Both the position numbers and the translations under genes were made by a program. Shown here one piece after another: positions 10,940 to 33,033 of a stretch of 64,000 nt of DNA. This DNA comes from Bacteroidales bacterium (GTDB lineage Bacteria > Bacteroidota > Bacteroidia > Bacteroidales > VadinHA17). How positions within the stretch are numbered: position 1 is the stretch's first letter; each line of letters opens with the position of its first letter. The notes beneath the pieces are model-generated. The model was not told where the DNA came from and did no database searches. It was given only the letters and a program-made list of their open reading frames with translations. The stretch is from NCBI GenBank assembly GCA_017882305.1, contig JADGPU010000002.1:1022-65021 (forward strand). Direction: 5' to 3'.

Positions 10940-11677
10940 ATGAGAAATAATATCCTTCCCCGTCTTTTTGTTTTTTGTCTTATTCTGGGAGCAAAAAATA
11001 TTAATACCGGATTACTTGCGGCAAATTCGGGCCATGATTCAGTTACAATTAAAAAATGTAAGGATTTTAAGATAACCGGCGATGGAGTTTCAGACCCCTG
11101 GAAGAGCACAAATTGGATAGCCCTTCTTCAGCAGAATACCAGTACTTTGTCATACAAAACTAAAGTTAAAGTCCTCTACTCTGAAACAGGTATATATTTT
11201 CTCTTCAACTGTGAAGATAAAAAGCTTACATCGTCAATGAAAGCGGATAATTTGAATTTATGGGAAGAAGATGTTGTTGAGGTTTTTCTGTGGACCGATG
11301 AAAATTTCCCGGTTTATTTCGAGTATGAACTTTCTCCGTTTAATTTTGAATTGCCCATTATGGTCCCTAATAATAAAGGGAATTTTTTAGGCTGGCTTCC
11401 CTGGCATTACGAAGGTGATAGAAGAACTCAACATGCCACTAGCGTTACCGGAGGTAAGATGGAAAGCGGAAGTATTATATCAGGCTGGATCGCTGAGTTT
11501 TTTATCCCTTATAAATTGCTTACCCCCTTAAGCCATGTACCCCCTGTAACCGGAACAAGATGGAGGGTAAACATGTATCGTATTGATTATGACAATGGTG
11601 AGGTACCTTATGCCTGGCAAAAGACAAGCCAGACATTTCATGAGTATAACAAATTTGGCACATTTATTTTTGATTAG
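10940..11677 (+). CDS. carbohydrate-binding family 9-like (DOMON-like) secreted protein
   Basis: 245-aa ORF with a signal peptide. Blocks WEEDVVEVFLW...YFEYELSP and TRWRVNMYRIDYD match the CBM9-like family pattern as I remember it. Confidence 0.65.
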   Translation: MRNNILPRLFVFCLILGAKNINTGLLAANSGHDSVTIKKCKDFKITGDGVSDPWKSTNWIALLQQNTSTLSYKTKVKVLYSETGIYFLFNCEDKKLTSSMKADNLNLWEEDVVEVFLWTDENFPVYFEYELSPFNFELPIMVPNNKGNFLGWLPWHYEGDRRTQHATSVTGGKMESGSIISGWIAEFFIPYKLLTPLSHVPPVTGTRWRVNMYRIDYDNGEVPYAWQKTSQTFHEYNKFGTFIFD

Positions 11678-11701
11678 AATAAGGCGAAATGATTATTGAG
11701 C

Positions 11702-11734
11702 ACAAACAATAGTTTCCCTTGTTTGTTTTATTTT
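11702..11734 (+). terminator. possible rho-independent terminator after the CBM9-like gene
   Basis: The hairpin acaaacaa-tagtttccc-ttgtttgt is followed by tttatttt, ~25 nt after the stop. The stem is AT-rich, so the call is weak. Confidence 0.35.
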
Positions 11735-11822
11735 CAAGCGACATTTAATAAAGAGCAGAATAAAATAAAATTGCTTTAAGGTGAACTAAAGTTTATTTTT
11801 GTATTAAATAAATAGTGAGATA

Positions 11823-12092
11823 ATGACACAAAGTGAGAAATCAAACCATGAATCGTTTAAAGTCTCCGGCGATGAGATATTATCTAAGGTTAAAGAGATA
11901 ATTAAAGAGGGAAATGCCAGAAGAATAATTATAAAAAACGAAAAAGACGAGACCATAATTGAATTCCCCCTGACAATTGGGGCCATCGGAGTCGTTTTAG
12001 CTCCTATTTTTGCAGCCGTCGGTACATTAACTGCACTGGCAACACATTGCACGATTATAGTTGAAAAAAGAAATAATGAAGAGGAAAAATGA
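11823..12092 (+). CDS. DUF4342 domain protein
   Basis: The 89-aa ORF has FKVSGDEILSKVKEIIKEGNARRIIIKNEKDETIIEFPLTIGAIGVVLAP, the typical DUF4342 pattern. Confidence 0.65.
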   Translation: MTQSEKSNHESFKVSGDEILSKVKEIIKEGNARRIIIKNEKDETIIEFPLTIGAIGVVLAPIFAAVGTLTALATHCTIIVEKRNNEEEK

Positions 12093-12122
12093 TTTTAAAG
12101 TTTTAATCGAATAATATGTGGA

Positions 12123-12347
12123 ATGATGAAAACAAGTAAAGCAAAAACAGTCAGCAAACCAAAGAAAACTTCTGATGCAGGTATAACTTTAAAGAAAAAG
12201 AAAGTTACGACCGGCAAAAATGTACCGGGTGAAGAAGAAATCCGTGAGAAAGCAAGAGAAATCTACTACGAGCGTATCGCCCGTGGCGAACATGGAACTC
12301 CCGAAAGCGACTGGCGTGAAGCAGAGGAACTTTTAAGAGGTTCCTGA
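12123..12347 (+). CDS. DUF2934 domain protein
   Basis: The 74-aa ORF has a Lys-rich N-terminus. It then reads EIREKAREIYYERIARGEHGTPESDWREAEELL, the DUF2934 signature. Confidence 0.65.
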   Translation: MMKTSKAKTVSKPKKTSDAGITLKKKKVTTGKNVPGEEEIREKAREIYYERIARGEHGTPESDWREAEELLRGS

Positions 12348-12546
12348 AGTTTTAGATTTTAAAGCTATAGTCGGGAACCTGATCTAATTGAAAAAAAAGG
12401 TAGAATTGTAAGTGAATCCATTTTCACGTAACCACCAGCGAAAAGCTTTGGCGATCTTTCTTTTTTTTAATAAGAAAACGCCGTGCTCGATTGATATGAT
12501 CCTGTAAACAGCTTTCATAGCTATATTTCTTCTGCTTTATTCTTTA

Positions 12547-13113
12547 TCACTTCAGATCGTAATATCTGAATTTCTTAAGATAATCATATATAGATGTCCC
12601 AAGAATATCCTCCTTGTTTATCCTTCCATTTGAATTCAGGAATTTCTCTAAAGAGCCTGCACCACCAAGATGAGATGCAGCTATCATTCCTGATTTCGTA
12701 ATTACGACACCATTGATAGAATCCCCGATAAAATGTTCATAATCCTCCAGAATCAGAAGATTTACCCTGATAAGAGTCTTTAGAACTTCTATCTGCAATT
12801 CCCTTGGAAAAACTTCGGGATTTGTCTTAAACTTCTTTAAAGTTATTTTTTTGTGTCCGAGATACTTCAGGGTAGATTCATCAAACTGCCATTCACCAAA
12901 ACAACCTATCCGGTTAACACATAGCCAGTTGTTTCCTGACTCGCTGTAACCAAGGTCATTAATAAATCTGGATAATTCCGTTTCATGGTATCTCTCTTCA
13001 ACAAACTCTGAAAATGATTTGAATCTAATCATCCCCAGTCGAAAATCAATATTCGGAGCGCTACAGATATGAGAGATAAAAATAAGCAGGAATGTCAGAA
13101 AAACTTTTCTCAT
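12547..13113 (-). CDS. small secreted protein, lysozyme / lytic-transglycosylase-like (tentative)
   Basis: 188-aa ORF with a signal peptide (MRKVFLTFLLIFISHICSA). YSESGNN ... GCFGEWQF ... AASHLGGAG resembles the E-S / G-x-x-Q / AYNxG spacing of SLT-type muramidases. The match is weak and motif-only. Confidence 0.45.
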   Translation of the reverse strand: MRKVFLTFLLIFISHICSAPNIDFRLGMIRFKSFSEFVEERYHETELSRFINDLGYSESGNNWLCVNRIGCFGEWQFDESTLKYLGHKKITLKKFKTNPEVFPRELQIEVLKTLIRVNLLILEDYEHFIGDSINGVVITKSGMIAASHLGGAGSLEKFLNSNGRINKEDILGTSIYDYLKKFRYYDLK

Positions 13114-13877
13114 GAATAAATAGATTAAGAAATATATTCCTCCAATTCAAATGTTTAATTATCACTTCAAAGTTAGACCTTATATGTACTGAAGTCAATC
13201 ATCGGAAGTCATGATTGAGGTTAAATGAGCCATGATTATTTCTGTTTCATCACAGAAAACCAGACGGTTAGCTATGAGATTTAACGATTAATAAACAGAT
13301 TGAGCCGGTTAGTCAAAATGGAAGGAAAATTTACTAATAATATGGGGATAATGAGATTATTCAGATATACTCGTAAAACATAATACAAAGATAATAAGAG
13401 TAATATAAAAACTTAACCATCTTAGTTTTAAGATTATTTCTAAATATGGAATTTTGACTAAATATCAATTTATTTAGATGAAAAATCAGACGCCTTTCCT
13501 AGATCACATTGATTCCATTGGAATTTTTCATTTCAAAATAAATAACTCGAGGTCGACAAGATGATTTTGTTCAGGTCGGGCAGGTGGTCTGTTACCTCAT
13601 TGAGACAATATATTAAAATCTTAAGCATTTGTTTTACAGTATATTCTCTTTTCCCTCATTTAACAATCGGACAACTTGCCGGACGGGTAAAAGAAGGATC
13701 ATCATTAATTGTATTATCCGGATTAATTGATGCAAATGGTGAAAGGAGCCTTCGTATTCCCGATTCAGGAACGCAGTTTTTCACTGCCACGATATACATC
13801 CCCCCGACAGGGGAAACAACCAAACATGAATGAAGTAAATTTATTAATCTGACATTAACCAAGCTGAAACAATTCAG

Positions 13878-14327
13878 TTAACCAGGCTGGCTCGGTGAAC
13901 ACTCTTTCAGGAATTGTTTTATCCTGCTCCAATAATTGGTTGTAAGATGTCCTGATCCATTCCATCTTCTGGCTATAAGTTCTAAATTATAAGGACCAAC
14001 CTGATCAGCGTAGTATAAAAAAATCTTTTCTGAAATATCATAGTTAAACAGGTCTTTCCTGCTATAGCTGCTTCCTGTTCGTTTATTAAAATCAATAAGT
14101 CTGATAGGACGGATCTGAAAAATTCCGGCTGCTTTTTCGATAGGATTGTAAGCCAGGGTATCACCTTTTGTTTCTACCATTCCTACGGCGAAAGCAATCT
14201 GCTTATATGGTTCTATTGGGGCAAACTCAAAAATAGTTACTAATTTCATACTGGGTGCCGAAACCTGAAGTGAAAAGGATAACAACATGAAGCAGACAAT
14301 TTTTATCCTTTTCAGATTAATGTACAT
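13878..14327 (-). CDS. small secreted lytic transglycosylase (SLT-domain)-like protein
   Basis: The ORF track gives 13878-14360. The internal Met (MYINLKRIKIVCFMLLSFSLQVSA) gives a signal peptide. VGMVETKGDTLAYNP...AAGIFQIRP fits the catalytic-Glu and GxxQ blocks of SLT-like enzymes. Confidence 0.55.
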   Translation of the reverse strand: MYINLKRIKIVCFMLLSFSLQVSAPSMKLVTIFEFAPIEPYKQIAFAVGMVETKGDTLAYNPIEKAAGIFQIRPIRLIDFNKRTGSSYSRKDLFNYDISEKIFLYYADQVGPYNLELIARRWNGSGHLTTNYWSRIKQFLKECSPSQPG

Positions 14328-14416
14328 CGCAAAACGCTGAATTATTTGTGTAAAATGCAAACCGGATTATTCTAATTGTTTTATTACGATTTAATGACAA
14401 ACCATGCCTTAGACAA

Positions 14417-14441
14417 ATTTACAACATAACTTGTTGTAAAT
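14417..14441. repeat. perfect 10-bp inverted repeat (atttacaaca-taact-tgttgtaaat)
   Basis: Read directly from the sequence. It lies in the spacer upstream of the SLT-like gene and downstream of the orphan ORF 14634-15197. Confidence 0.6.
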
Positions 14442-14633
14442 AAATGAAATTCGTCTTCTTTTATAAACAAACTTTCAACCATTCCAAATTAGCCTTTGAG
14501 AAGGATCTGCCTTACTTTTTATCCTTTAATTCTTGCTGATCACAAGTACACTTGTTTTTAACAGATCGCAGACAGTAATAAAATTCTCTGTAAATTATCG
14601 GATACATATAATTTGATGAAACCATATGAAGAG

Positions 14634-15197
14634 TTATACAGCTGTTCTGTAATTTTGTGTTCTGAAATATGTTAACCCATTAATTTCTGTCATGTCAATT
14701 ATTTTGAATCCGTGAGACTCAAGAAGTCTTGAGAAATCCCTGCTATCTATATCAACATCGATCTTTGAATCCAAAATATTAATGAACTTTTTGTACAACC
14801 TTGAAATTATATTAACTTCTTTTTGAGTTTTTCTGTCGTAAAAGCATCCTATAAAATTTGTTTTCGGCGATAATCCATTGTAGAGAGTATGCAAAAAATC
14901 ATCCAAATGTTTAATAAGGTTGAGTTTCTTTAGGTTAATTAAGGTGGTCACATCTTTTAATTCTTCATAATCATAATAATAGTGAAGCTTAGAAGAGAGT
15001 ACCAGTAAATTGTCTTCATTTGCAAGACCATGCCAGTTAAGGTAATTTATAAAGTTCTCGTCAACCTCTGCAATAAGTCTGTCGGGAACTAAAATATTTT
15101 TTCTTGTTTCAGGCTGAACTTTTGTCTGTTTTAAATTTGTTCTGACTTTTCTATCGGCAGTTGTGACCGGCCTTTGTAAAATTGAAATAGCTTCCAT
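14634..15197 (-). CDS. hypothetical protein (orphan; faint methyltransferase-fold resemblance only)
   Basis: The ORF track gives 14634-15266. The start is probably at MEAISILQRP. I saw no catalytic or cofactor motif. Coding is supported mainly by ORF length inside an otherwise ORF-poor AT-rich region. Confidence 0.45.
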   Translation of the reverse strand: MEAISILQRPVTTADRKVRTNLKQTKVQPETRKNILVPDRLIAEVDENFINYLNWHGLANEDNLLVLSSKLHYYYDYEELKDVTTLINLKKLNLIKHLDDFLHTLYNGLSPKTNFIGCFYDRKTQKEVNIISRLYKKFINILDSKIDVDIDSRDFSRLLESHGFKIIDMTEINGLTYFRTQNYRTAV

Positions 15198-25129: not shown

Positions 25130-25441
25130 TTATTTCTTTGACTTGGTCAGCTTTTTTATCTCTTTATCTTTTTGGGCTGACTCTTCTTCAAGTCTGCCGA
25201 TTTTATCATTAAGCTTCTCAACTTTGGCAGTAAGTTTATCTATTTCGTCCTTCAAACCTGCAACCTGCCTGATTAATTGGGCTTTATCAGCTTCAAGACC
25301 TTTTATTACCGGAGTATAAACCGACTTTGCATAGAACCATGCAGTAAAATATCCGATTATTACCGCAACAAGGAGCAATGCGACTATGGTTATTACGGCT
25401 CCTGTTACAGTCTGGGTGAGTTGTATAAATAATAGTGTCAT
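25130..25441 (-). CDS. small membrane protein with C-terminal coiled coil
   Basis: The ORF track gives 25130-25528. The start is placed at MTLLFIQLTQTVTGAVITIVALLLVAVIIGYFTAWFY (two hydrophobic stretches). Its ATG then sits immediately after the stop of the upstream OmpA-family gene (TAACATG). The tail is heptad-like (DKAQLIRQVAGLKDEIDKLTAKVEKLNDKIGRLEEE). Confidence 0.5.
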   Translation of the reverse strand: MTLLFIQLTQTVTGAVITIVALLLVAVIIGYFTAWFYAKSVYTPVIKGLEADKAQLIRQVAGLKDEIDKLTAKVEKLNDKIGRLEEESAQKDKEIKKLTKSKK

Positions 25442-25442
25442 G

Positions 25443-25988
25443 TTATTGCATTTTAATTGATATTTCTGTTCTTCTGTTTTTTGCTCTCCCCTCTTTGGTG
25501 AGATAATCTGCGGAAGGGTTACTTTCACCTTGCGATTCCGTTATAATCCTCTTTGAGCTTATACCCTTAGACTCAAGGTACTTTCCTACTGCCAAAGCTC
25601 TTTTCAACCCAAGAGCTTTATTATATTCGGTTGTTCCCACGAGATCGGTATTTCCGGTAACGGAAAGCATCGATCCGGTATATTTGTCGAGCCATACTTT
25701 AAACGCAGCAATGTTGTTGTCGGTTTGCAGATCAGTTTTGAATTTTGTGTCATTAAATTCAAAATAGATCAGAAGGATTTCAGGCATCGATGCTTTAAGT
25801 TTCATTAAAGAATCTGCCTCATTAGATTGTGATTCAGGAATTGTCTGTACCGTGACCGGTTTTTTCATAGCAGGTAAAAGCTTATCATTATAAAGCCAGG
25901 CGGAAATAAAACACCAGATCACGAATATGACAAATCCGGTAATAAGGATTCTCATTTTAAGATTAGTTAAATTATAAAGATCAGCCAA
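25443..25988 (-). CDS. OmpA/MotB-family protein (N-terminal TM helix + peptidoglycan-binding OmpA-like domain)
   Basis: 181-aa ORF. An alternative start at MRILITGF would be at 25955. The OmpA-like block is TGNTDLVGTTEYNKALGLKRALAVGKYL...NRRTEISI. Confidence 0.8.
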   Translation of the reverse strand: MADLYNLTNLKMRILITGFVIFVIWCFISAWLYNDKLLPAMKKPVTVQTIPESQSNEADSLMKLKASMPEILLIYFEFNDTKFKTDLQTDNNIAAFKVWLDKYTGSMLSVTGNTDLVGTTEYNKALGLKRALAVGKYLESKGISSKRIITESQGESNPSADYLTKEGRAKNRRTEISIKMQ

Positions 25989-26271
25989 TTGTCCCTACAA
26001 GTTATAAAATAATTACAAAACAGAGACCATTGAAAATGTATTAATTTCTTAAGTCCATGATTTTAATTATATAATGAATATTGGTTCAGGAAAGCTAATG
26101 GCTTGAAAGGTACTTGCGGGCAGGAGTAAGAAACAATATTCTTTTAAAAATATAAGCTAATAATTAATAAGTTATTTTATAAATAAATTCAAATTTTAAT
26201 ATTATAAGAACCGTTATCTTTACACAGTTTGATAATATCTGATATTTTCCTGAACTAATAAATAATAAGAT

Positions 26272-28137
26272 ATGAAGAATAATGTCAATAAAACTGATAA
26301 CGGGCAAACACCCTATGAAACTGCCAGAAACTGTCGCCATTATGCTATGTGCAAAATAGATTTCCTGGGCAGTGGTGTATGCGATTCAGGCCTGGAAAAA
26401 CATTTCGTAAGCTACTATCCCCAGGGAAGAATGATACTTTATGAAGCTCTTGTAGAAAATAAAATTCCGATAACTGAAAAATGTGTCGAGATTGCAGATA
26501 GTTGTGATTTATGTGGTAAATGCGATTACCAATGTTACTTTCTTAATGAAATGAGGCCTACAAAAGTTATGGAGGCATTGAAGAATCATGTTGAGACTTT
26601 CATTAAAGAAGGTGGTAAGATTAAACCTCCAAAAGAAGACAGAATGCTCACAGAAATCAAAATAATTGTAGGTGAAAACTGGGCAACGAATGATGAGGCA
26701 ATTACGATAACTTATTCTCACGACCTTAGTTCTATTTCTGACCCCAAAATTCCTGATTATGTGGTAATGCCAGATACTAAGGAAGAAATTTCATCTCTGG
26801 TTAAACTATTTAACAAGAATAATATCACTTATACCATTCGTGGCAATGGTCAGAATCTTCTCGGATTTGCTATAAATGAAGGCGTGATTATTGATCTTAA
26901 CAGGATGAAAACAATTGAATTTGATGAGAAGAACTGGCTTGTAAAAGTAGGCCCGGGAGTTGCAGCATTTGATCTTCAGAAACAAGCTCAGAAAAGAGGG
27001 TTCAGAATAAATGCAGCTGAGCCCGCAGCTCTTGTTTGTGCCAATATTATGTGCTCAGGAATAATGTCAACTTTTTCTACAACTTATGGGATAAATGCCG
27101 ATAATATTATTGATGCAGAATTTGTTAATAAGGAGGGTTCTATTTTTAGTTTAAATGATATCTCTTCTCCAAATCTTTATTCATACAAAAACCTGGAACA
27201 TAAAAATTCTCCGGGTATTTGTATATCAGCCAGCATTAAACTTCATCCTGTTACAGATGATGAAAGTGGTATTCTCGTGCCATTTCAAACTCTTGAAAAT
27301 GCACTTGATTTTATTAAGGATTGTGCCATTAGGCATATTGGTCTTGCTTTAGGTATTGTCGGTACTGAATATATATCTGTATTTCTTTCCCCTACAAAAA
27401 AAATGGCATCTGAAATAAAAAGTATATTCGTTGATAAATTAAACATACACTGGCTTGTTGTAGTAATCGGAGATAAATATGCAATCCGCACTATCGGTGA
27501 AATGGGATTTCCTTTCTTTGATCAGAACCTGTTTAACTCACTTTATCTTGGATTACCATCTCTAAAAAAAGCACAATGGCTCGATCTGGTAAAAGAGCTT
27601 TCTGATGATGAACCTTATTCCTATTTAAAAATTAAAAGTTTCGCTGAACTTTTTGAAACTGCACTTTCACCTTCTCCGGCTTTATATTCACAGGAAATCG
27701 ATAAGGAACTCCGGCCATTTTTTGAAAAGCTTTTCTCCCGGCAGGAAATGACAGATCTTGTCTGGTTAAATATGTACCGGATAATGAGTACACGTCTGGG
27801 TCGCAAAAAACCTTTTTTACCGGCACTCATGTATTTGCCTATAGATAACATATTGATTAATGAACTATCTGACAAATTCAGACTTATAGCTGAGAAGCAT
27901 CAGATTGACCATGATTTTGGTTTTATCACTCCAATCGATAATGGGAAAAGATGCATTTTTGAATATGATTTCTTTTACGATTATAATGATCCGGATGACA
28001 TACAAAGAATAAGAAAGGTAGCAACTGAAGCAAATATGTTAATTGATGATTATTCAGTTAAAACCGGTAAAGTAAAAGGACATCCTTACGTTTTGTATCA
28101 GGGATTCTGCCGGAAAGAGAATTTACTCTATTCATAA
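26272..28137 (+). CDS. Fe-S (GlcF-like Cys motifs) + FAD-binding PCMH-type (FAD_binding_4-like) oxidoreductase
   Basis: 621-aa ORF. The N-terminus has CRHYAMC..GVC, PQGRMILYEAL and CDLCGKCDYQC (CxxCxxCxxxC). The central part reads DYVVMPDTKEEISSLVKLF...IRGNGQNLLGF...VIIDLNRMK...VGPGV...YGINADNIIDAEFVNKEGSIF, which follows the FAD_binding_4 pattern with a divergent Gly loop. Confidence 0.65.
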   Translation: MKNNVNKTDNGQTPYETARNCRHYAMCKIDFLGSGVCDSGLEKHFVSYYPQGRMILYEALVENKIPITEKCVEIADSCDLCGKCDYQCYFLNEMRPTKVMEALKNHVETFIKEGGKIKPPKEDRMLTEIKIIVGENWATNDEAITITYSHDLSSISDPKIPDYVVMPDTKEEISSLVKLFNKNNITYTIRGNGQNLLGFAINEGVIIDLNRMKTIEFDEKNWLVKVGPGVAAFDLQKQAQKRGFRINAAEPAALVCANIMCSGIMSTFSTTYGINADNIIDAEFVNKEGSIFSLNDISSPNLYSYKNLEHKNSPGICISASIKLHPVTDDESGILVPFQTLENALDFIKDCAIRHIGLALGIVGTEYISVFLSPTKKMASEIKSIFVDKLNIHWLVVVIGDKYAIRTIGEMGFPFFDQNLFNSLYLGLPSLKKAQWLDLVKELSDDEPYSYLKIKSFAELFETALSPSPALYSQEIDKELRPFFEKLFSRQEMTDLVWLNMYRIMSTRLGRKKPFLPALMYLPIDNILINELSDKFRLIAEKHQIDHDFGFITPIDNGKRCIFEYDFFYDYNDPDDIQRIRKVATEANMLIDDYSVKTGKVKGHPYVLYQGFCRKENLLYS

Positions 28138-28153
28138 ATCTAAACTTCCGGGT

Positions 28154-29329
28154 ATGGCTGATAAAAGCAAACCAACAATAGCCCTGACCGGAGCAACTGG
28201 TTTTCTGGGCAGCCACCTGATGTCTTCTATGCTTTTAAAAGGATATACGGTTATAGTTCTCGGCCGTTCGACCAAAGAAGAGCCTTTGTATGAAAGAATC
28301 TCCAGACTTTTAAGATGGTTCGGAATTGAAAACCGCTTAAATCAGGTAACCTGCGTCGATACCGATTTATCGCAAGATAATTTAGGAATAGAAAATGAAG
28401 AGTATTCCAGGCTTTGTTCAGTTGTAGGTTCTTTCATTCATTGCGCGTCGGATACAAGCTTTTCTGAAAGCAAACGCGATAAGGTAATGGCTGCAAATAT
28501 AAATAATCTGAAAGGAATCCTGGAATTCTCCAGGTATGCAAGGGTTAATTTTTTCCATTACATAAGCACTGCGTATGTTGCCGGGTTAAGTGAAAATGTT
28601 TGTAAAGAAAATCTTCCTGTAACAAATTCTTTCACAAATGTATATGAAGAGAGTAAAGCCGGAGCTGAAAATATTATTGCACAATATTGCGATAAGAATT
28701 CTATTAATCTTTCAATCATAAGACCATCCATTGTTTACGGAGATTCTCAAAACGGACGGTCTCTTAAATTTAATGCATTGTATTTCCCGATTCGATCTGT
28801 TCAAAGCATCAGGGATATCTACCTGAATGACCTGAAAAATAATGGAGGTAAAAAGGCACTCAAAAACGGCATTTACATTGACAAAGAAGGATATCTGTTC
28901 TTACCGCTCAAAATCTATCTGCCTAAGGAAGGAGATTTAAATATTATTCCTGTGGATTATTTTGTAAACGCAACTATTAAAATAATTGAGAATTGTTTCC
29001 CTGGTGGAATTTTTCATCTTACAAACAATTCTCCTACAAGAATGACCACTCTTGTAAAGTATTATGAACAACTTATGAAAGTAAGAGGGGTGGAAATTAT
29101 TTATGGTAAATCAGCAGACAATTTATCAAGGAATCCCTCTGAAGAACTGTTTGATCGTTTTATTGAACCTTACCGTCCATATTTATCCGACAATAGAATT
29201 TTTGACAGAACAAATACTGATCTTGTAACAGGTAATCTGAATCCCCCGGAATTTACTTATGAAATATTTAAAAAATGCATGGAATATGCCATCAGGGTAA
29301 ACTGGGGAGCTTCGATTTTTGATAATTAA
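28154..29329 (+). CDS. extended SDR of the thioester-reductase / fatty acyl reductase type (NAD_binding_4-like)
   Basis: 391-aa ORF with LTGATGFLGSHL, VLGRS...RI, a DLS...LGI motif, FIHCASD, YISTAYV and YEESKAGAE (YxxxK), then IRPSIVYG. This is the pattern of terminal reductase domains and acyl-CoA reductases. Confidence 0.75.
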   Translation: MADKSKPTIALTGATGFLGSHLMSSMLLKGYTVIVLGRSTKEEPLYERISRLLRWFGIENRLNQVTCVDTDLSQDNLGIENEEYSRLCSVVGSFIHCASDTSFSESKRDKVMAANINNLKGILEFSRYARVNFFHYISTAYVAGLSENVCKENLPVTNSFTNVYEESKAGAENIIAQYCDKNSINLSIIRPSIVYGDSQNGRSLKFNALYFPIRSVQSIRDIYLNDLKNNGGKKALKNGIYIDKEGYLFLPLKIYLPKEGDLNIIPVDYFVNATIKIIENCFPGGIFHLTNNSPTRMTTLVKYYEQLMKVRGVEIIYGKSADNLSRNPSEELFDRFIEPYRPYLSDNRIFDRTNTDLVTGNLNPPEFTYEIFKKCMEYAIRVNWGASIFDN

Positions 29330-29371
29330 ATACTGAGACTAATACGTCGGGATTTTTTAAAAAAACTAATT

Positions 29372-30907
29372 ATGGCTAAGGTATTACTCATTAACTCAAA
29401 TAGATTCAAACACCCCTGGCCTGTCATACCTTTCGGGCTCTGTTACATAGCAACTGCCCTTGAAACAAACGGAAATCACACAGTCCGTTTTCTCGATTTA
29501 TGCTTTTCTTCAGATTGCGAACTTGATATTCAGAATTCAGTGCGGAATTTTGTCCCTGATGTAATTGGTATTAGTATAAGGAACATTGATGATACGGGAG
29601 GCTTTAATGTCCATTTTTTGTTAGAAGATGTCAAGAATGATGTCATTGATTATTGTAAGAAAGAATTCCAGGGTCCTATAGTTATAGGAGGTCCTTCGGT
29701 AGGGATCAGCGGCAAAGAGATGCTTGATTATTTTGACCTGGAATATGCAATTCGGGGCGATGGTGAAGCTGTAATGCCCGAATTTGTAAAACGTATTGAA
29801 AATCAACAACCTCTGGAAGGATTAAGAGGTTTGATTATCCGCCGAGAAAAGACAATTATTCAGGATAATGAACCATTCCGTGTTCAGGACTTAGACTCGC
29901 TACCTTTCCCTAAACCACTTCGATATATGGATCTTAACCAGTATCGCCGTTTTGGGTCTCCTGTCCACATACAGACAAAACGAGGCTGTGCCTTCAGGTG
30001 TTCTTATTGTACTTACAATAAAATTGAGGGTAATCAGTACCGCTTAAGGAATCCTAAACTTATTGCCGATGAAATTGAAATTCTTGTTAAGGAAACGGGT
30101 ATCAATCAACTTGAATTTACTGACAGCATTTTTAATATGCCCCTCGCTCATACAAAAGAAGTTTTAAGGGAAGTTATAAGTAAAAAACTTGATCTCAGAG
30201 TGCATACCATGGGCCTTTCCCCTGCGGCAGTTGATGAAGAACTTCTTGATCTGATGAAAAGTGCCGGTTTTAATGAAGTGGATATCGGTGCCGAGTCTGC
30301 ATGTGACGAAGTACTTGAAAGTCTGGCCAAAGACTTTAAACGTTCAGATGTTATAAAAACAGCGGATCTTTTAAGAAGGAAAAAGATTCCTGTAACCTGG
30401 TTCATAATGCTTGGCGCCCTTAAAGAAACAAGAGAAACTGTGCTTGAAACTCTGAATACTATTGGCAAGGTTGCTTCAAAATGGGATTTGGTTTTTGTCT
30501 CAACAGGAGTTCGGGTATATAAAGGGGCTCCTATAGCTGATGAAATCATGAAAAATTATATACACTGTACAAGTGATAACTTTTTGCACCCTGTAAAAAT
30601 TGAACCGGAGAAAATAAGTTTAGAGGATATCCATTCAATTGCGACAGACTTCTCCTTTAGATTCCCCAACTTTTATTTTTATGAAAAAGAACATATAATT
30701 CCCGGATGGCTTCTAGTAACAGCTAATTATTTACTAAAGGCGTTCCACTCCCATCAACCGGTCTGGCGATTACTCATACTTTTAAAAAGGACTGAACGGT
30801 TTCTGGCTATTACTTTAATAAGAAAATGGATATACACATTAAAAATGAGATCATTTGATAAGAACAATCGGATAACAAATGGATTTTCTCTTATCATACA
30901 CAAATAG
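29372..30907 (+). CDS. B12-binding-domain radical SAM protein (class B)
   Basis: 511-aa ORF. The N-terminal ~140 aa resemble a B12-binding Rossmann-like domain (VLLINSN...GLCYIATALE...VIGISIRN). The radical SAM cluster motif is CAFRCSYCTY (CxxxCxxC). The C-terminus is hydrophobic/amphipathic (IPGWLLVTANYLLKAF...WRLLILL). Confidence 0.85.
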   Translation: MAKVLLINSNRFKHPWPVIPFGLCYIATALETNGNHTVRFLDLCFSSDCELDIQNSVRNFVPDVIGISIRNIDDTGGFNVHFLLEDVKNDVIDYCKKEFQGPIVIGGPSVGISGKEMLDYFDLEYAIRGDGEAVMPEFVKRIENQQPLEGLRGLIIRREKTIIQDNEPFRVQDLDSLPFPKPLRYMDLNQYRRFGSPVHIQTKRGCAFRCSYCTYNKIEGNQYRLRNPKLIADEIEILVKETGINQLEFTDSIFNMPLAHTKEVLREVISKKLDLRVHTMGLSPAAVDEELLDLMKSAGFNEVDIGAESACDEVLESLAKDFKRSDVIKTADLLRRKKIPVTWFIMLGALKETRETVLETLNTIGKVASKWDLVFVSTGVRVYKGAPIADEIMKNYIHCTSDNFLHPVKIEPEKISLEDIHSIATDFSFRFPNFYFYEKEHIIPGWLLVTANYLLKAFHSHQPVWRLLILLKRTERFLAITLIRKWIYTLKMRSFDKNNRITNGFSLIIHK

Positions 30908-30930
30908 ATAATATGTGAAAACTTAGTAAA

Positions 30931-31758
30931 ATGCAGAAAATTTCTGAAGAAATATACAGCCGAATAGATAACAACATTTACAACCTGGAAGGAGACAGGT
31001 GGTGGCAGACTGATTTCTCACTCAATCTGATAAGAACATTAATTAATCCATTCCGGGTTGGTTATGCAAAAAAGATAATTGAACAAATTAGTAAAATTGA
31101 TTCAGAGAAAATAAGTGTGCTTGAAGTGGGTTGTGGCGGAGGAATATTATCTGAAGAGATTGCTAAAATTGGATACATAACCACTGGTATTGACCCATCA
31201 GAGTCATCATTGAATACAGCTATTGAACACGCGAAGGAGAACAATCTAAAGATAAAATATGGGAAAGGGATCGGTGAGAATCTGCCATTTCAACCCGATT
31301 CTTTCAACGTAGTACTTTGTTGCGATGTATTGGAACATGTGCACGATTTGCCGAAAGTAATTTCAGAGATTTCACGTGTATTGAAAAACGGAGGTGTATT
31401 CATATATGACACCTTTAATCGCACATATTTCAGCAAAATAAGTGCCATCAGAATTTTACAGGAATGGAAGCGATGGGCCATAATGCCCCCGAATCTTCAT
31501 GTTTGGGAAATGTTCATCAGACCTGATGAGATGATATCTTTACTACGCGAAAATCAATTGGAATGGAAAGAACACCGTGGAATTAAACCAAATATTTCAT
31601 ATTTGAAAATGCTTCGTTATCTTCATAAAAGAGCTATCGGAGAATTGACTTATGAAGAATTTGGTAATAAATTTCATATGGTTGAAAGCAGTAGTACTCA
31701 AATTATGTATATGGGATATGCTGTCAAATCATTTTCCCTTCACCTGCAAAAAAATTAA
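30931..31758 (+). CDS. class I SAM-dependent methyltransferase, UbiG-like
   Basis: 275-aa ORF. RWWQTDFSLNLIRTLINPFRVGY resembles the UbiG N-terminal block. SAM motif I is VLEVGCGGGILSE, followed by CCDVLEHV. Confidence 0.75.
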   Translation: MQKISEEIYSRIDNNIYNLEGDRWWQTDFSLNLIRTLINPFRVGYAKKIIEQISKIDSEKISVLEVGCGGGILSEEIAKIGYITTGIDPSESSLNTAIEHAKENNLKIKYGKGIGENLPFQPDSFNVVLCCDVLEHVHDLPKVISEISRVLKNGGVFIYDTFNRTYFSKISAIRILQEWKRWAIMPPNLHVWEMFIRPDEMISLLRENQLEWKEHRGIKPNISYLKMLRYLHKRAIGELTYEEFGNKFHMVESSSTQIMYMGYAVKSFSLHLQKN

Positions 31759-33033
31759 AATAACACCCGCAAGGGTCATAAGGACTAATGCGGCAAAACC
31801 AAGAATATTAGATATTTTCCCGTTTATGTTTTTACCCATTATTTTTTTATTGTTTGAAATATGTAGAATTATTGCGATTAGAACAGGGGCAGTCAGACCA
31901 TAGAGAATGGCAGAATAAATCAGTGCTTTAATCGGTGAAATGCCAATGTAATTCAAAGATAGGCCCAGGATCAACGAAATGGCAATAATGAGATAAAATG
32001 CTTTTGCTTTTTGAAATTTTTTATCTAATCCTTCTTTCCAACCAAATGATTCGGTGACTATGTAAGAAAGTGAACCACTCAAAACAGGAATAGCTAATAG
32101 TCCGGTGCCTATAACTCCTAAAGCAAAAAGTAAATATGCTGCGTTCCCTGCCAATGGTTTCAACGCCTGAGCTGCTTGTTCTACTGTGTCAATCTGATGA
32201 ATGTTTCCATTAAATAAAACCGACCCTGTTGTCAGAATAATAAAGAACATAACAAGATTTGAAAATAACATTCCAAAATCGACATCTTTCCGCATTTCGT
32301 TTATTATTCTTTTATTCACAATTAAATTCTTTTTCTTTCCCTTTTTGTCTTCCACTTCCATTGTTGCCTGCCAGAAGAACAGATAGGGTGAAATGGTCGT
32401 TCCCAGAATTGCAACTAGAATGCTGAGAAAGTCCTTATCAAACCTTATTTTTGGAATAAAGGTGGCTTTTAGTACCGCGACCCAATCTTGTTTGTATAAA
32501 AACGGAACTATCACATAAACCAAAAGAATGAGACAGAGATATTTTAGAACAGTGGCAATTTTTTGATAAGGCAAATAAATAATTAATAGTAAAAGCACTA
32601 GGGTAAATCCTATGCTGAAATAAGTTGCTTTTATTGAAGGGAACAATAGATTTCCTACAGCCCCCATCCCGGCAATGTCAGCTCCTATATTCATTACAAT
32701 AGCAGGAAAACTAAATAGCAACATCAAATATAAAACAGGTTTTGAATAATTAGTTTTAAGGGTTCCTGCTAATCCATGCGACGTAACCAGACCTATTCTA
32801 GCACACATTTCCTGAATTGAAGCCATGAGTGGGAATGTAATAAGTGCTGTCCAGAGAGTTGATAGTCCGTATGCAGCGCCAGCTTGTGAATAGGTTGCAA
32901 TTCCTGAAGGGTCATCATCACTTGCACCTGTTACAAGACCGGGGCCGAGTATTTTCCAAAAACGAAAAAGTTTCGATGACTTTTTATCATCGTGCTGACT
33001 TTTATTATCTAAAGGAGTCTTCATTATATCCAC
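31729..33033 (-). CDS. NRAMP (SLC11)-family cation transporter, non-canonical binding-site motifs
   Basis: 434-aa polytopic membrane ORF. The TM1 block is GPGLVTGASDDDPSGIATYSQAGAAYG, with DPSG where canonical MntH has DPGN. The TM6 region reads TTISPYLFFWQ instead of the MPH block. Confidence 0.8.
   Translation of the reverse strand: MDIMKTPLDNKSQHDDKKSSKLFRFWKILGPGLVTGASDDDPSGIATYSQAGAAYGLSTLWTALITFPLMASIQEMCARIGLVTSHGLAGTLKTNYSKPVLYLMLLFSFPAIVMNIGADIAGMGAVGNLLFPSIKATYFSIGFTLVLLLLIIYLPYQKIATVLKYLCLILLVYVIVPFLYKQDWVAVLKATFIPKIRFDKDFLSILVAILGTTISPYLFFWQATMEVEDKKGKKKNLIVNKRIINEMRKDVDFGMLFSNLVMFFIILTTGSVLFNGNIHQIDTVEQAAQALKPLAGNAAYLLFALGVIGTGLLAIPVLSGSLSYIVTESFGWKEGLDKKFQKAKAFYLIIAISLILGLSLNYIGISPIKALIYSAILYGLTAPVLIAIILHISNNKKIMGKNINGKISNILGFAALVLMTLAGVILIFLQVKGK

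Follow-up and report, generated by a model that had tools for sequence, protein, structure and literature searches.

A conserved flavoprotein-reductase gene pair of anaerobic bacteria that possibly tailors phenolic or quinol-type compounds

Introduction

What do four closely packed genes of a Bacteroidales bacterium do together, and do they form a unit at all? The question is raised by a stretch of 64,000 nucleotides (contig JADGPU010000002.1; hereafter the window), in which a flavoprotein with Fe-S motifs (P1), an extended SDR reductase (P2), a cobalamin-dependent radical-SAM enzyme (P3) and a methyltransferase (P4) are encoded one after another. An initial annotation made from the letters alone had assigned these four families, and profile searches against Pfam and NCBIfam upheld all of the assignments. 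It had also recognised no described cluster, in agreement with which we found no curated family or paper describing the P1-P2 module in NCBIfam, Pfam or the full-text literature. The module is an undescribed combination, the constituent enzyme superfamilies of which are known.

Results and discussion

Organization of the locus

The four ORFs lie on the plus strand at 26272-31758 with intergenic gaps of 16, 42 and 23 nt, which bears out the tight co-directional set first described, and this set is indeed closed off by a convergent gene, an Nramp-family gene on the minus strand (31729-33033) that overlaps the 3' end of P4 by 30 nt. The AT-rich spacer noted 5' of P1, then put at about 280 nt, measures 283 nt with 23% GC (25989..26271, plus strand). 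No riboswitch was recognisable in this leader: an Rfam scan with a threshold of E=1 gave one hit, which lies outside it, and the fold z-score is -0.53. The exact TAnnTTTG motif was looked for there and not found. In nine aligned upstream regions from Bacteroidales relatives, the sole conserved stretch was a plus-strand block at 26203..26241 (TATAAGAACCGTTATCTTTA...GTTTG), about 30-70 nt 5' of the P1 ATG, and this block probably serves the unit as promoter or operator.

Conservation of the module

Close packing alone could arise by chance, with four unrelated genes and no functional unit. A promoter scan (27 against 24.4 expected) and a terminator scan (5 against 3.8 expected) say little either way, but this explanation is extremely improbable and already contradicted by conservation data. 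Our comparison covered 89 non-duplicate related loci, 81 of which had flanking DNA long enough to judge P1-P2 adjacency, and in 73 of the 81 (90%) P2 lay directly downstream of P1 in the same orientation, the stop codon of one gene often overlapping the start codon of the next. The adjacency persists for P1 homologues at 33-46% identity and spans more than 10 phylum-level labels; the pair is also found in MAGs labelled Acetivibrionales, Oscillospiraceae, Syntrophomonadaceae and Patescibacteria. Across hundreds of anaerobe genomes, P1 and P2 co-travel, usually with a quinone-type methyltransferase, and P2 appears to be an obligate partner of P1.

All four families are co-located in 23 loci, a co-conservation that had been proposed as a check on the unit. 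They stand there in three gene orders, 1-2-3-4 (Bacteroidales-type), 3-4-1-2 (L033) and 4-1-2-ABC-3 (L040), and they are flanked by 16 different neighbour families upstream and 15 downstream. The recurrence of the same four families amid such varied neighbours points to an arrangement beyond chance, and, with flanks that are unrelated between genomes, the module is self-contained and mobile as a unit; horizontal transfer has probably spread it among anaerobes living in peat, sediment and groundwater. The P3 family is present in 22-23 of the 89 loci, which belong to a Bacteroidales-type clade except for two deltaproteobacterial loci with shuffled order, and is missing from close relatives (L008, L013, L023 and L028) and most other lineages. 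P4-P1 without an adjoining P2 was seen in five Aminicenantes/Acidobacteria loci. Judged from these neighbourhoods, the core of the unit is P1-P2, usually with a methyltransferase, and P3 is an optional add-on. The four-gene operon of the initial annotation thus stands as a conserved unit but not as a fixed four-gene set.

Among 116 genes neighbouring the module, no further family was enriched. No prenyltransferase, ring-forming enzyme, CoA ligase or carrier protein was a conserved partner at any locus, and sugar-nucleotide, glycosyltransferase and isoprenoid genes were not recurrent nearby. UbiD and UbiX flank P1-P2 at one locus (L085), and UbiD, UbiX and UbiE-type genes each occur in one or two lineages. 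Five related Aminicenantes-type loci encode a FabK-like NMO protein upstream, phospholipase A1 follows P4-P1 in L030 and L050, and the L040 module includes an MsbA-like ABC transporter. Stress or detoxification genes (DJ-1/PfpI, Glyoxalase_4, OsmC, CsbD and YtxH) adjoin some loci and are not enriched.

P1, the hub flavoprotein

P1 (26272..28137, plus strand; 621 aa) was characterised by profile searches and an AF2 model, and all features given below lie on the plus strand as well. A helical Fe-S domain at its N-terminus (roughly residues 17-110; 26320..26601) carries the motif C21-x5-C27-x2-D30-x6-C37 ... C78-x2-C81-x2-C84-x3-C88; in 19 sequences of 25-83% identity, the seven Cys (C21, C27, C37, C78, C81, C84 and C88) and D30 of this motif vary little or not at all. 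This region matches Fer4_8 (dicluster ferredoxin) weakly (E 0.08), its Cys motifs are similar to those near the N-terminus of GlcF-type subunits, and the P1 homologue P0129 carries a precomputed PF13183 annotation. We infer that the domain binds two Fe-S clusters.

The second, PCMH-type FAD-binding domain (about residues 120-337; 26629..27282) holds the sole Pfam match of P1, FAD_binding_4 (PF01565; residues 161-294, 8.7e-26). In the family profile, residues 120-347 align to D-LDH, glycolate oxidase, VAO-type enzymes and AGPS. Using Foldseek, the AF2 model (pLDDT 88, pTM 0.88) was placed in the VAO/PCMH/D-LDH/AGPS superfamily at a TM of about 0.5 and 13-16% identity; the TM-scores (0.46-0.53) do not tell VAO-type, D-LDH and AGPS folds apart, and the lowest E-values were those of 4-alkylphenol oxidoreductases (vanillyl-alcohol dehydrogenase and eugenol oxidase). 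The fused Fe-S domain implies real electron transfer, a role for P1 in favour of which the Cys/D30 helical domain, the weak Fer4_8 match and the confident VAO-type fold all speak.

Residues 338-621 (27283..28134) make up a putative family-specific cap (substrate) domain with conserved R508, R511, G558, E564 and D566, for which there was no Pfam match even at E<=10 and no sequence homologue in the PDB (best E 0.77). Across the family alignment, neither the FAD nor the cap domain has a conserved His, and P1 showed no FAD-oxidase_C match and no CCG domains. An AGPS-like ether-lipid enzyme, the analogy drawn at first, is not supported for P1: FAD-oxidase_C, the conserved His and a PDB sequence homologue of the cap are all absent, and AGPS needs no redox Fe-S wire, whereas P1 has one.

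The top profile matches of P1 are D-LDH, D-2-hydroxyacid dehydrogenases and glycolate oxidase (5e-26 to 2e-23). Together with the GlcF-like Cys motifs and the stress-related neighbours, they could suggest that small hydroxy acids and aldehydes are handled, for detoxification or as an electron sink, by a GlcD/D-LDH-like P1 with a GlcF-like relay, while P2 would turn a short acyl thioester or aldehyde (e.g. a lactoyl or glycolyl thioester) into the alcohol. D-2-hydroxyacid dehydrogenases have a metal site with His. P1, however, lacks a conserved metal-site His as well as the FAD-oxidase_C and CCG domains, and scores 51 bits against the GlcD model TIGR00387, the cut-off of which is 568. The lack of enrichment of stress-related neighbours also counts against this explanation, which leaves the recurrent UbiG/UbiE-type methyltransferases and the B12 radical-SAM gene unexplained, and we consider it highly doubtful.

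P2, the reductase partner

P2 (28154..29329; 391 aa) is a stand-alone extended SDR of the R-domain/FAR type with a strong match to NAD_binding_4 (PF07993; 5e-42, 144 bits) and a match to the fatty acyl-CoA reductase-type model PRK07201. Its nearest solved structures are MxaA and PKS terminal reductase domains, its closest relatives reduce acyl thioesters, and TGxTGFxG, S138 and Y164-x3-K168 are invariant. Weaker matches were obtained to Epimerase (2.5e-18), 3Beta_HSD (2.7e-15) and HpnA (46-62 bits).

These weaker matches, and the position of a VAO-family flavoprotein beside a translationally coupled SDR, recall DprE1/DprE2, in which oxidation by a flavoprotein and reduction by an SDR are coupled. 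By analogy, P1 would oxidise a secondary hydroxyl to a ketone, with electrons leaving via Fe-S, and P2 would reduce the ketone with NAD(P)H to give inverted stereochemistry or further reduction, before the methyltransferases cap the product; a polyprenyl-phosphate sugar, a hopanoid or steroid, or another envelope precursor could be the substrate. We hold this improbable. The NAD_binding_4 score of P2 is far above those of Epimerase and 3Beta_HSD, and DprE1 carries a second, ALO-type domain, of which the Pfam matches of P1 give no counterpart. Genes for sugar nucleotides, glycosyl transfer and isoprenoids do not recur nearby, and UbiG/UbiE-type methyltransferases would be unexpected on sugars.

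P3, P4 and other methyltransferases

P3 (29372..30907; 511 aa), the facultative member, is a cobalamin-dependent (class B) radical-SAM enzyme (PF02310 and PF04055), and its cluster motif C206-x3-C210-x2-C213 (CAFRCSYC; 29987..30010) is invariant in 22 orthologues, the two deltaproteobacterial ones included. For both P3 (291 bits) and the deltaproteobacterial radical-SAM genes, the top NCBIfam model was TIGR04072, named 'lipid biosynthesis B12-binding/radical SAM protein'; the scores ran over 291-333 bits, all under the 360-bit cut-off. BzaD and TsrM-type models came next for P3. The nearest solved structure is TsrM (6wte, 1e-33), and TsrM and BzaD, the nearest characterised relatives, both methylate aromatic sp2 carbons. 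The 'hydrophobic C-terminal tail' once ascribed to P3 turned out to be amphipathic (maximal 19-residue Kyte-Doolittle average 0.97), and the case for a membrane-associated substrate made from it is weak, none of the four proteins having a transmembrane-grade segment.

P4 (30931..31758; 275 aa) is a class I SAM-dependent methyltransferase with Methyltransf_11/23 domains. It scores 144.5 bits against the UbiG model TIGR01983 (cut-off 102.95, which may be lenient), the range for P4 together with orthologues from three lineages is 144-158 bits, and among solved structures E. coli UbiG (4kdc, 8e-23) is the nearest. This family adjoins P1 or P1-P2, upstream or downstream, in 42 of the 89 loci. In a distant P1 clade (L083, L093 and L095), the same operon position is occupied by a UbiE/MenG-family methyltransferase (TIGR01934, 204-224 bits against a cut-off of 158).

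Proposed function

Our leading, still tentative reading is a self-contained mobile tailoring module with a two-enzyme redox core acting on a hydrophobic phenolic or quinol-type substrate. With NAD(P)H, P2 would form an aldehyde or alcohol from a carbonyl substituent or an activated carboxyl group (a thioester), and P1, with its private substrate cap, would carry out the following two-electron step at the same alpha or benzylic carbon. Electrons would pass between the FAD of P1 and an outside partner at the ferredoxin or quinone level by way of the two fused Fe-S clusters, so that O2 would not be required. P4, or the UbiE/MenG-type enzyme in other clades, would place a methyl on a ring O or C, and P3, as kin of the aromatic C-methylases TsrM and BzaD, would add an extra methyl in the Bacteroidales clade. 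The step order, the direction of electron flow through P1 and the substrate are all part of this proposal; candidates are precursors or derivatives of a naphthoquinol or benzoquinol, and alkylphenols or aryl acids from the environment.

The accessory enzymes lean weakly to an aromatic or quinol-type substrate over an aliphatic lipid, with an aliphatic acyl chain as the less likely alternative. This leaning derives from the UbiG and UbiE/MenG partners, UbiD/UbiX at L085, the TsrM/BzaD kinship, the 4-alkylphenol oxidoreductase matches of P1 and a Leptospirillum quinone cluster, in which a cobalamin radical-SAM methyltransferase adjoins UbiA, UbiC and a UbiE-like gene (PMC11874023). Several points count against it. 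First, there is no conserved prenyltransferase, ring-forming, ligase or carrier partner, and Ubi-type genes are confined to one or two lineages. Second, the UbiE/MenG genes could be the hosts' housekeeping menG, and the UbiG cut-off may be lenient. Third, the pair occurs in Acetivibrionales, Oscillospiraceae, Syntrophomonadaceae and Patescibacteria, lineages from which respiratory quinones are often missing. Finally, D-LDH and glycolate oxidase head the profile matches of P1, kin of P2 reduce acyl thioesters, and the best, sub-cut-off model of P3 is named for lipid biosynthesis.

The kin of P2 and the lipid-biosynthesis model of P3 would suit aliphatic lipid tailoring, in which P2, as a fatty acyl-CoA/ACP reductase, would draw on the common acyl pool to give a fatty aldehyde or alcohol, and P1 would convert that product or an unsaturated chain, by AGPS-like ether formation or by reducing an exomethylene installed by a methyltransferase (BfaB/BfaA or SMT/DWF1 logic). 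P3 would introduce methyl branches at unactivated carbons, and the outcome would be a membrane lipid of the ether, methoxy or methyl-branched kind. A precedent is an actinobacterial operon in which a methyltransferase is paired with an FAD-binding oxidoreductase to make 10-methyl stearate (PMC5660069). The NAD_binding_4 and PRK07201 matches of P2, the loci with P4-P1 minus P2 and the lipid-related neighbours also favour this reading, and a module free of ligase and carrier suits a universal substrate such as acyl-ACP or acyl-CoA. We nevertheless consider it unlikely, since those neighbours are confined to single lineages, every TIGR04072 score is sub-threshold, the AGPS features are missing from P1, membrane segments are absent from all four proteins, and the methyltransferases are of the UbiG and UbiE/MenG types, not Cfa or SMT (for P4, CMAS is a sub-threshold match at E 0.004). 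From the substrates initially listed, an ether or methyl-branched aliphatic lipid has the P2 family and the sub-threshold P3 match to recommend it and is not favoured, and 'phenolic lipid' fits best, on account of the UbiG-like and UbiE/MenG-like partners, UbiD/UbiX at one distant locus and the kinship of P3 with TsrM and BzaD.

Organization and spread of the module

The four genes of the module follow one another on the + strand of the window: P1 (26272-28137, 621 aa), encoding an Fe-S and FAD flavoprotein; P2 (28154-29329, 391 aa), an extended SDR of the R-domain/FAR type; P3 (29372-30907, 511 aa), a B12 (class B) radical-SAM enzyme; and P4 (30931-31758, 275 aa), a UbiG-like methyltransferase. 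The genes are separated by gaps of 16, 42 and 23 nt, and the unit differs little in GC content from the window as a whole (36.1% against 38.2%). Positions, strand and gaps agree with the initial annotation, and every one of its domain calls was upheld by Pfam and NCBIfam searches; the C-terminal tail of P3, which had been described as hydrophobic, turned out to be merely amphipathic, and no transmembrane-grade segment was found in any of the four proteins. An Nramp-family transporter gene on the - strand (31729-33033) is convergent with P4 and overlaps its 3' end by 30 nt (31729-31758), so that there is no room for an intergenic terminator between the two genes.

Upstream of P1 lies a 283-nt spacer of 23% GC. 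The sole part of this AT-rich leader that is conserved among Bacteroidales relatives is the block TATAAGAACCGTTATCTTTA...GTTTG (26203-26241), about 30-70 nt 5' of the P1 start, the rest being divergent; judged from this conservation, the block is a plausible candidate promoter or operator. The exact Bacteroidetes TAnnTTTG motif is absent from the leader. No Rfam match was found there and the folding energy is not in excess, which speaks against a riboswitch or structured leader, and the sigma-70 promoter and terminator scans gave counts equal to the shuffled expectation and were hence uninformative. On the - strand upstream of the module, an OmpA-family ORF (25443-25988, TTG start) overlaps a 132-aa coiled-coil-like ORF (25130-25528, GTG start) by 86 nt, and one of the two start codons has probably been set too far upstream.

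The P1 family is sharply bounded: only 74 of 1.84 billion representative proteins fell below 1e-30, about 20 of them full-length with 25-46% identity. Relatives of P1 were found at 307 places across about 185,000 species-representative genomes (one genome per species), and more than 1000 were present among the 90%-identity clusters scored in a metagenome protein collection. By record-title label, the best 80 of the 307 loci comprise Bacteroidota (41), Aminicenantes/Acidobacteria (16) and Geobacteraceae with other Deltaproteobacteria (11), together with Chloroflexi, Firmicutes, Leptospirales, Verrucomicrobiota, Chrysiogenia, Ignavibacteria, Omnitrophica and Patescibacteria, at one or two loci apiece. 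MAGs of anaerobes from fen, peat, permafrost, lake sediment and groundwater account for most of them, and at least three hosts are in culture (Marinilabilia rubra WTE16, Geofilum rubicundum JCM 15548 and Desulfonatronum thioautotrophicum). P1 proteins from different phyla share 57-63% identity, a high value for a protein of 620 residues that suggests horizontal spread; a few of the phylum labels may be binning errors. In two MAGs labelled Ignavibacteria and Omnitrophica (L016 and L025), P1 is 81-84% identical to that of the window, reflecting either very recent transfer or binning errors.

Gene order was analysed by ORF prediction, BLAST and clustering in the related loci and in 13 further loci for distant homologues. 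Of the 81 non-duplicate loci with sufficient DNA, 73 have P2 immediately 3' of P1 and co-directional with it, and the stop codon of P1 often overlaps the start codon of P2; this pairing holds even for P1 homologues of only 33-46% identity, and the core pair also occurs in Firmicutes-labelled MAGs. A gene for a UbiG-like methyltransferase is adjacent in 42 of 89 loci; the Bacteroidales-type clade has it on the downstream side, and Deltaproteobacteria, Aminicenantes and others have it on the upstream side. No more than 22-23 loci carry the B12 radical-SAM gene, and four close relatives (L008, L013, L023 and L028) lack it and read P1-P2-P4. At two deltaproteobacterial loci, the module is adjoined by a similar but more distant radical-SAM gene (32-36% identity; TIGR04072 again the best model, at 320-333 bits), in the orders 3-4-1-2 and 4-1-2-ABC-3.

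The initial annotation had proposed a gene-neighbourhood comparison as a check of the operon; when it was run, all four families were found together in 23 loci, with 16 different families as upstream neighbours and 15 as downstream neighbours. Clustering of the ORFs of 82 loci revealed no further conserved partner, and no family was enriched when 116 neighbouring genes were surveyed with Pfam. The UbiD, UbiX, UbiE, PLA1, FabK-like, ABC and CoA-ligase neighbours are each limited to one lineage. Because the P1-P2 order is conserved while the flanks differ and no extra family is conserved, the comparison of loci argues for a self-contained, mobile module in three layers, with P1-P2 as the core, a methyltransferase as the usual companion and the radical-SAM enzyme as an option. 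We consider it very probable that the module is a functional unit.

P1 as a distinct VAO-type flavoenzyme

FAD_binding_4 (PF01565; 8.7e-26, 90.7 bits against a cut-off of 26.4) was the only Pfam or NCBIfam domain detected in P1, with the N-terminal 115 and C-terminal 280 residues unmatched. With the family profile, too, the alignment to many solved structures was limited to the FAD domain (residues 120-347); D-LDH and glycolate oxidase ranked highest. An AlphaFold (AF2) model from a 19-sequence alignment was confident (pLDDT 88, pTM 0.88) and predicts an N-terminal helical domain, an FAD domain and a cap domain. When searched by Foldseek, the model matched VAO-type, D-LDH, PCMH and AGPS structures with a probability of 1.00 over about 520-550 aligned columns, all at 13-16% identity. 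The lowest E-values (3e-18) were obtained with vanillyl-alcohol dehydrogenase and eugenol oxidase (TM about 0.5 to VAO-type enzymes), the highest target-normalised TM with D-lactate dehydrogenase, and the lowest TM (0.45-0.46) with AGPS. On the strength of this model, P1 can be assigned to the VAO/PCMH superfamily, among whose members Foldseek does not discriminate.

The N-terminal domain carries the pattern C21-x5-C27-x2-D30-x6-C37 and C78-x2-C81-x2-C84-x3-C88, whose seven Cys and single Asp vary little or not at all; the Cys include one canonical CxxCxxCxxxC motif. Of the helical dicluster ferredoxin models (Fer4_8/Fer4_17) typical of GlcF/GlpC/HdrD-type Fe-S subunits, Fer4_8 matches the window P1 weakly (E 0.082, 13.9 bits, cut-off 27), and PF13183 (Fer4_8-type) is precomputed for the P1 homologue P0129. 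We infer two Fe-S clusters that would wire the flavin to an external redox partner. No CCG domain was found in P1, and the FAD domain comes straight after the Fe-S domain. The cap (residues 338-621) gave no Pfam match at E<=10, and searching with a profile likewise retrieved no PDB sequence homologue; its conserved residues are R508, R511, G558, E564 and D566, with no His among them. Across 19 family members, no His is conserved at >=80% anywhere in residues 120-621, and the only His-rich columns of P1 are residues 23 and 325, at about 50-60%. AGPS has a catalytic His-rich loop and a Tyr in the cap, and D-LDH/D2HGDH have a His/His/Glu metal site there. The lack of a conserved cap His therefore argues against an AGPS-type His loop, a D-2-hydroxyacid-dehydrogenase metal site and His-linked covalent FAD in P1.

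Compared with the known flavoprotein systems, P1 shows partial likeness to three. First, it shares with GlcDEF, YdiJ and LctD the PCMH-type FAD domain, the GlcD/D-LDH clade giving its best profile matches, and a predicted Fe-S relay (CxxCxxCxxxC) coupled to flavin. In contrast to these systems, the Fe-S module of P1 is N-terminally fused, lacks CCG domains and is followed by no FAD-oxidase_C cap (no match to PF02913), and the obligate partner is an R-type SDR. Handling of a small hydroxy acid or aldehyde, which these profile matches might suggest, is highly improbable, since a P1 of the D-2-hydroxyacid type is contradicted by the missing FAD-oxidase_C and cap His metal site and by GlcD scores far under the cut-offs (TIGR00387, 51 bits against 567.9; PRK11230, 27 against 897); the YdiJ model gave 29 bits against 1350.

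Second, the FAR plus AGPS route of eukaryotes and myxobacteria also combines an NAD_binding_4 reductase with an FAD_binding_4 protein, and AGPS is among the structural and profile matches of P1. An analogy to this enzyme (alkyl-DHAP synthase) had been drawn in the initial annotation; however, the AGPS cap features were looked for in P1 at the sequence level and not found, and the module has no acyltransferase partner. The Fe-S domain would moreover imply net redox chemistry, unlike that of AGPS. Membership of the ether-lipid (AGPS plus FAR) route was rejected on the lack of FAD-oxidase_C and of a conserved His and on the fused Fe-S domain.

Third, the 4-alkylphenol oxidoreductases of the VAO/PCMH group (vanillyl-alcohol oxidase/dehydrogenase, eugenol oxidase and p-cresol methylhydroxylase), to which the lowest Foldseek E-values belong, resemble P1 as O2-independent flavin enzymes with an external electron acceptor and a dehydrogenase/reductase partner. 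These enzymes work together with an alcohol dehydrogenase in anaerobic alkylphenol catabolism. P1 differs from them in having a cap without a sequence homologue, no conserved His for covalent flavinylation, an Fe-S relay rather than a cytochrome c subunit, and a partner of the NAD_binding_4 type. No NCBIfam model scored above its cut-off for the architecture of P1 (N-terminal Fe-S domain, PCMH-type FAD domain, private cap). P1 defines a distinct, uncharacterised subfamily of VAO-type flavoenzymes, marked by a private substrate domain and by a fused domain that is predicted to act as an Fe-S wire.

The partner enzymes

P2 is a clear member of NAD_binding_4 (PF07993; 5e-42, 144.3 bits against a cut-off of 20.1). 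Its extended-SDR motifs (TGxTGFxG, Ser and Tyr-x3-Lys) are all invariant among 17 orthologues of 28-80% identity (G13, T15, G16, G19, S138, Y164 and K168), and the nearest solved structures are the terminal reductase (R) domains of MxaA (myxalamid) and of a type I PKS. The thioester reductase model TIGR01746 covered only the Rossmann half (residues 9-207) at 102.9 bits against 213.35, and no carrier protein or ligase is conserved near P2 in the related loci compared. An AF2 model of P2 from the single sequence was too poor to interpret (pLDDT 38).

P3 has an N-terminal B12-binding domain and a radical-SAM core, scoring over the cut-offs of both PF02310 (40.9 bits) and PF04055 (80.3 bits), and the three Cys of its CxxxCxxC motif (C206, C210 and C213) are invariant. 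Its best model is the 'lipid biosynthesis' B12-binding/radical-SAM family TIGR04072, at 291.2 bits and under the cut-off of 360, as are the deltaproteobacterial radical-SAM genes of the module (319.9 and 333.1 bits); BzaD (167.1 against 450) and the TsrM-type TIGR04428 (157.5 against 500) follow. TsrM is also the closest solved structure (1e-33).

P4, a class I methyltransferase, matches the UbiG model TIGR01983 over positions 10-209 of 228 at 144.5 bits, above the cut-off of 102.95, and its orthologues at three other loci score similarly (L033, 145.7; L090, 158.1; L094, 153.6 bits); the best solved structure is E. coli UbiG. No other ubi genes lie inside the module, and to our knowledge ubiquinone is not expected in Bacteroidales or the other anaerobic hosts. 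In a distant P1 clade (41-46% identity), the operon methyltransferase belongs to the UbiE/MenG family in place of the UbiG-like one, with 204-224 bits against a cut-off of 158 in Desulfonatronum (L083), L093 and L095. UbiE/MenG is a functionally narrow family of quinol C-methyltransferases. Taken by the curated models, P1 and P2 fail every equivalog, P3 stays under the TIGR04072, BzaD and TsrM-type cut-offs, and P4 alone passes one (UbiG), in a setting without the rest of the ubiquinone pathway. Each protein belongs to a known superfamily, and the module can be classed as a compact redox-plus-methylation tailoring operon that is not categorically new. A literature search found no paper describing this gene combination, and nothing about the module overturns current understanding.

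Possible substrates and pathway

Two lines of context, one of lipid type and one of aromatic/quinol type, compete, and both are weak. An aromatic or quinol substrate is our tentative choice, held with somewhat less than even confidence, and this line was weighted somewhat higher because of the functional narrowness of the UbiE/MenG family. The clues are faint: in several lineages the orthologues of P4 score above the UbiG cut-off, UbiE/MenG appears in the distant clade, UbiD and UbiX flank P1-P2 at one locus (L085), and the nearest characterised kin of P3, TsrM and BzaD, methylate aromatic carbons. We know of no quinone pathway to which the P1 and P2 families belong. The methyl-plastoquinone cluster of Leptospirillum (LFE_2122-2125) offers a further likeness to the quinone ring-tailoring sets (UbiG, UbiE/MenG, UbiD/UbiX), as a cobalamin radical-SAM methyltransferase gene there adjoins UbiA, UbiC and a UbiE-like gene (PMC11874023). 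Unlike such sets, no locus of the module has a linked UbiA/MenA prenyltransferase or any ring-precursor or ring-forming gene, and the quinone-type neighbours, methyltransferases apart, are each limited to one lineage; both points count against a quinol, as does the presence of the core pair in MAGs with a Firmicutes label.

Tailoring of an aliphatic lipid, including methyl branching, is rather unlikely. The P2 family and the sub-threshold TIGR04072 match of P3 point faintly in this direction, as do the phospholipase A1, FabK-like and MsbA-like ABC transporter neighbours, each seen in a single lineage. The TIGR04072 family was defined from gene clusters of anammox bacteria and some Deltaproteobacteria; these were once proposed to make ladderane-type fatty acids and carry ACP, FabF, FabZ and phytoene-desaturase-like genes (PMC2649909, PMC13459092). 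Those genes are absent from the module, and all its TIGR04072 scores are under 360. Another parallel is BfaA/BfaB, a two-gene, translationally coupled unit of an FAD-binding oxidoreductase and a methyltransferase that acts on a lipid-linked substrate to give 10-methyl stearate (PMC5660069). However, BfaB is Cfa-type and the system NADPH-using, no Fe-S domain is described there, and P4 is not of the Cfa/CMAS type, its PF02353 score (E 0.0037, 17 bits) being below the cut-off of 27. DprE1/DprE2 is likewise a two-gene, translationally coupled pair, an FAD oxidase and an SDR working on a lipid-linked substrate, and a similar oxidation-reduction couple in P1-P2 can be imagined, though we consider it very unlikely. 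The SDR of that pair, DprE2, is of the classical short type, and DprE1 carries a second domain of the ALO type; neither this system nor BfaA/BfaB includes a UbiG/UbiE-type methyltransferase or a B12 radical-SAM enzyme.

For the module as a whole, we infer the order of steps, the direction of electron flow and the substrate as follows. P2 would use NAD(P)H to reduce a substituent that is either an activated carboxyl or a carbonyl; the following two-electron step at the same carbon would fall to P1, which would need no O2 and would exchange electrons via its Fe-S clusters; and the methyltransferase, with the B12 radical-SAM enzyme where present, would methylate the product. Within the aromatic/quinol reading, a bolder and quite unlikely proposal is that the P1-P2-methyltransferase trio, with the radical-SAM enzyme in Bacteroidales, forms an undescribed O2-independent route to a modified, possibly soluble, quinone or phenolic in anaerobes. 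In one such scheme, P2 might act on the thioester of an aromatic carboxyl group, for instance 1,4-dihydroxy-2-naphthoyl-CoA, and reduce it to the benzylic alcohol, and P1 might run VAO/PCMH chemistry in reverse, removing the hydroxyl reductively via a quinone methide with electrons fed by Fe-S; the carboxyl carbon would become a ring methyl, and O- or C-methylation of the ring would follow. Were this so, the VAO family would gain a new reaction type, and peat and sediment microbiomes a new class of redox-active metabolite. More generally, a modified quinone or phenolic product would matter for electron transfer and for redox shuttling in anoxic soils rich in carbon, and a lipid product could be one origin of the ether or methyl-branched biomarkers whose source is unknown. 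The module has a wide distribution in carbon-rich anoxic habitats, and as a compact system of two to four genes it is small enough for direct testing.

Additional observations in related loci

Several loci depart from the usual layout. In five Aminicenantes/Acidobacteria loci in all, P4-P1 occurs without an adjacent P2, and in two loci with these labels an outer-membrane phospholipase A1 gene follows P4-P1 in place of P2 (L030, 5632-6573; L050, 10117-11058). Two proteins that appeared to be fusions, P0237 (methyltransferase with P1) and P0155 (P1 with P2), align in broken pieces and come from GC-rich metagenome contigs; they were rejected as true fusions and look like frameshifted read-through gene calls. 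At L085 (6556-16503), the genes run UbiD, P1, P2, a GFO/IDH/MocA oxidoreductase, UbiX, an MFS transporter and two PEP-synthase-like halves, a content that resembles that of anaerobic aromatic (de)carboxylation and phosphorylation systems. At five loci labelled Aminicenantes, Acidobacteria, Chrysiogenia and Patescibacteria (L056, L057, L066, L075 and L080; about 7050-7900 and 11080-14950), two families without a Pfam match stand beside P1-P2, one of ~265 aa upstream of P1 and the other of ~287 aa or longer downstream of P2, and four of these loci also carry a FabK-like NMO protein.
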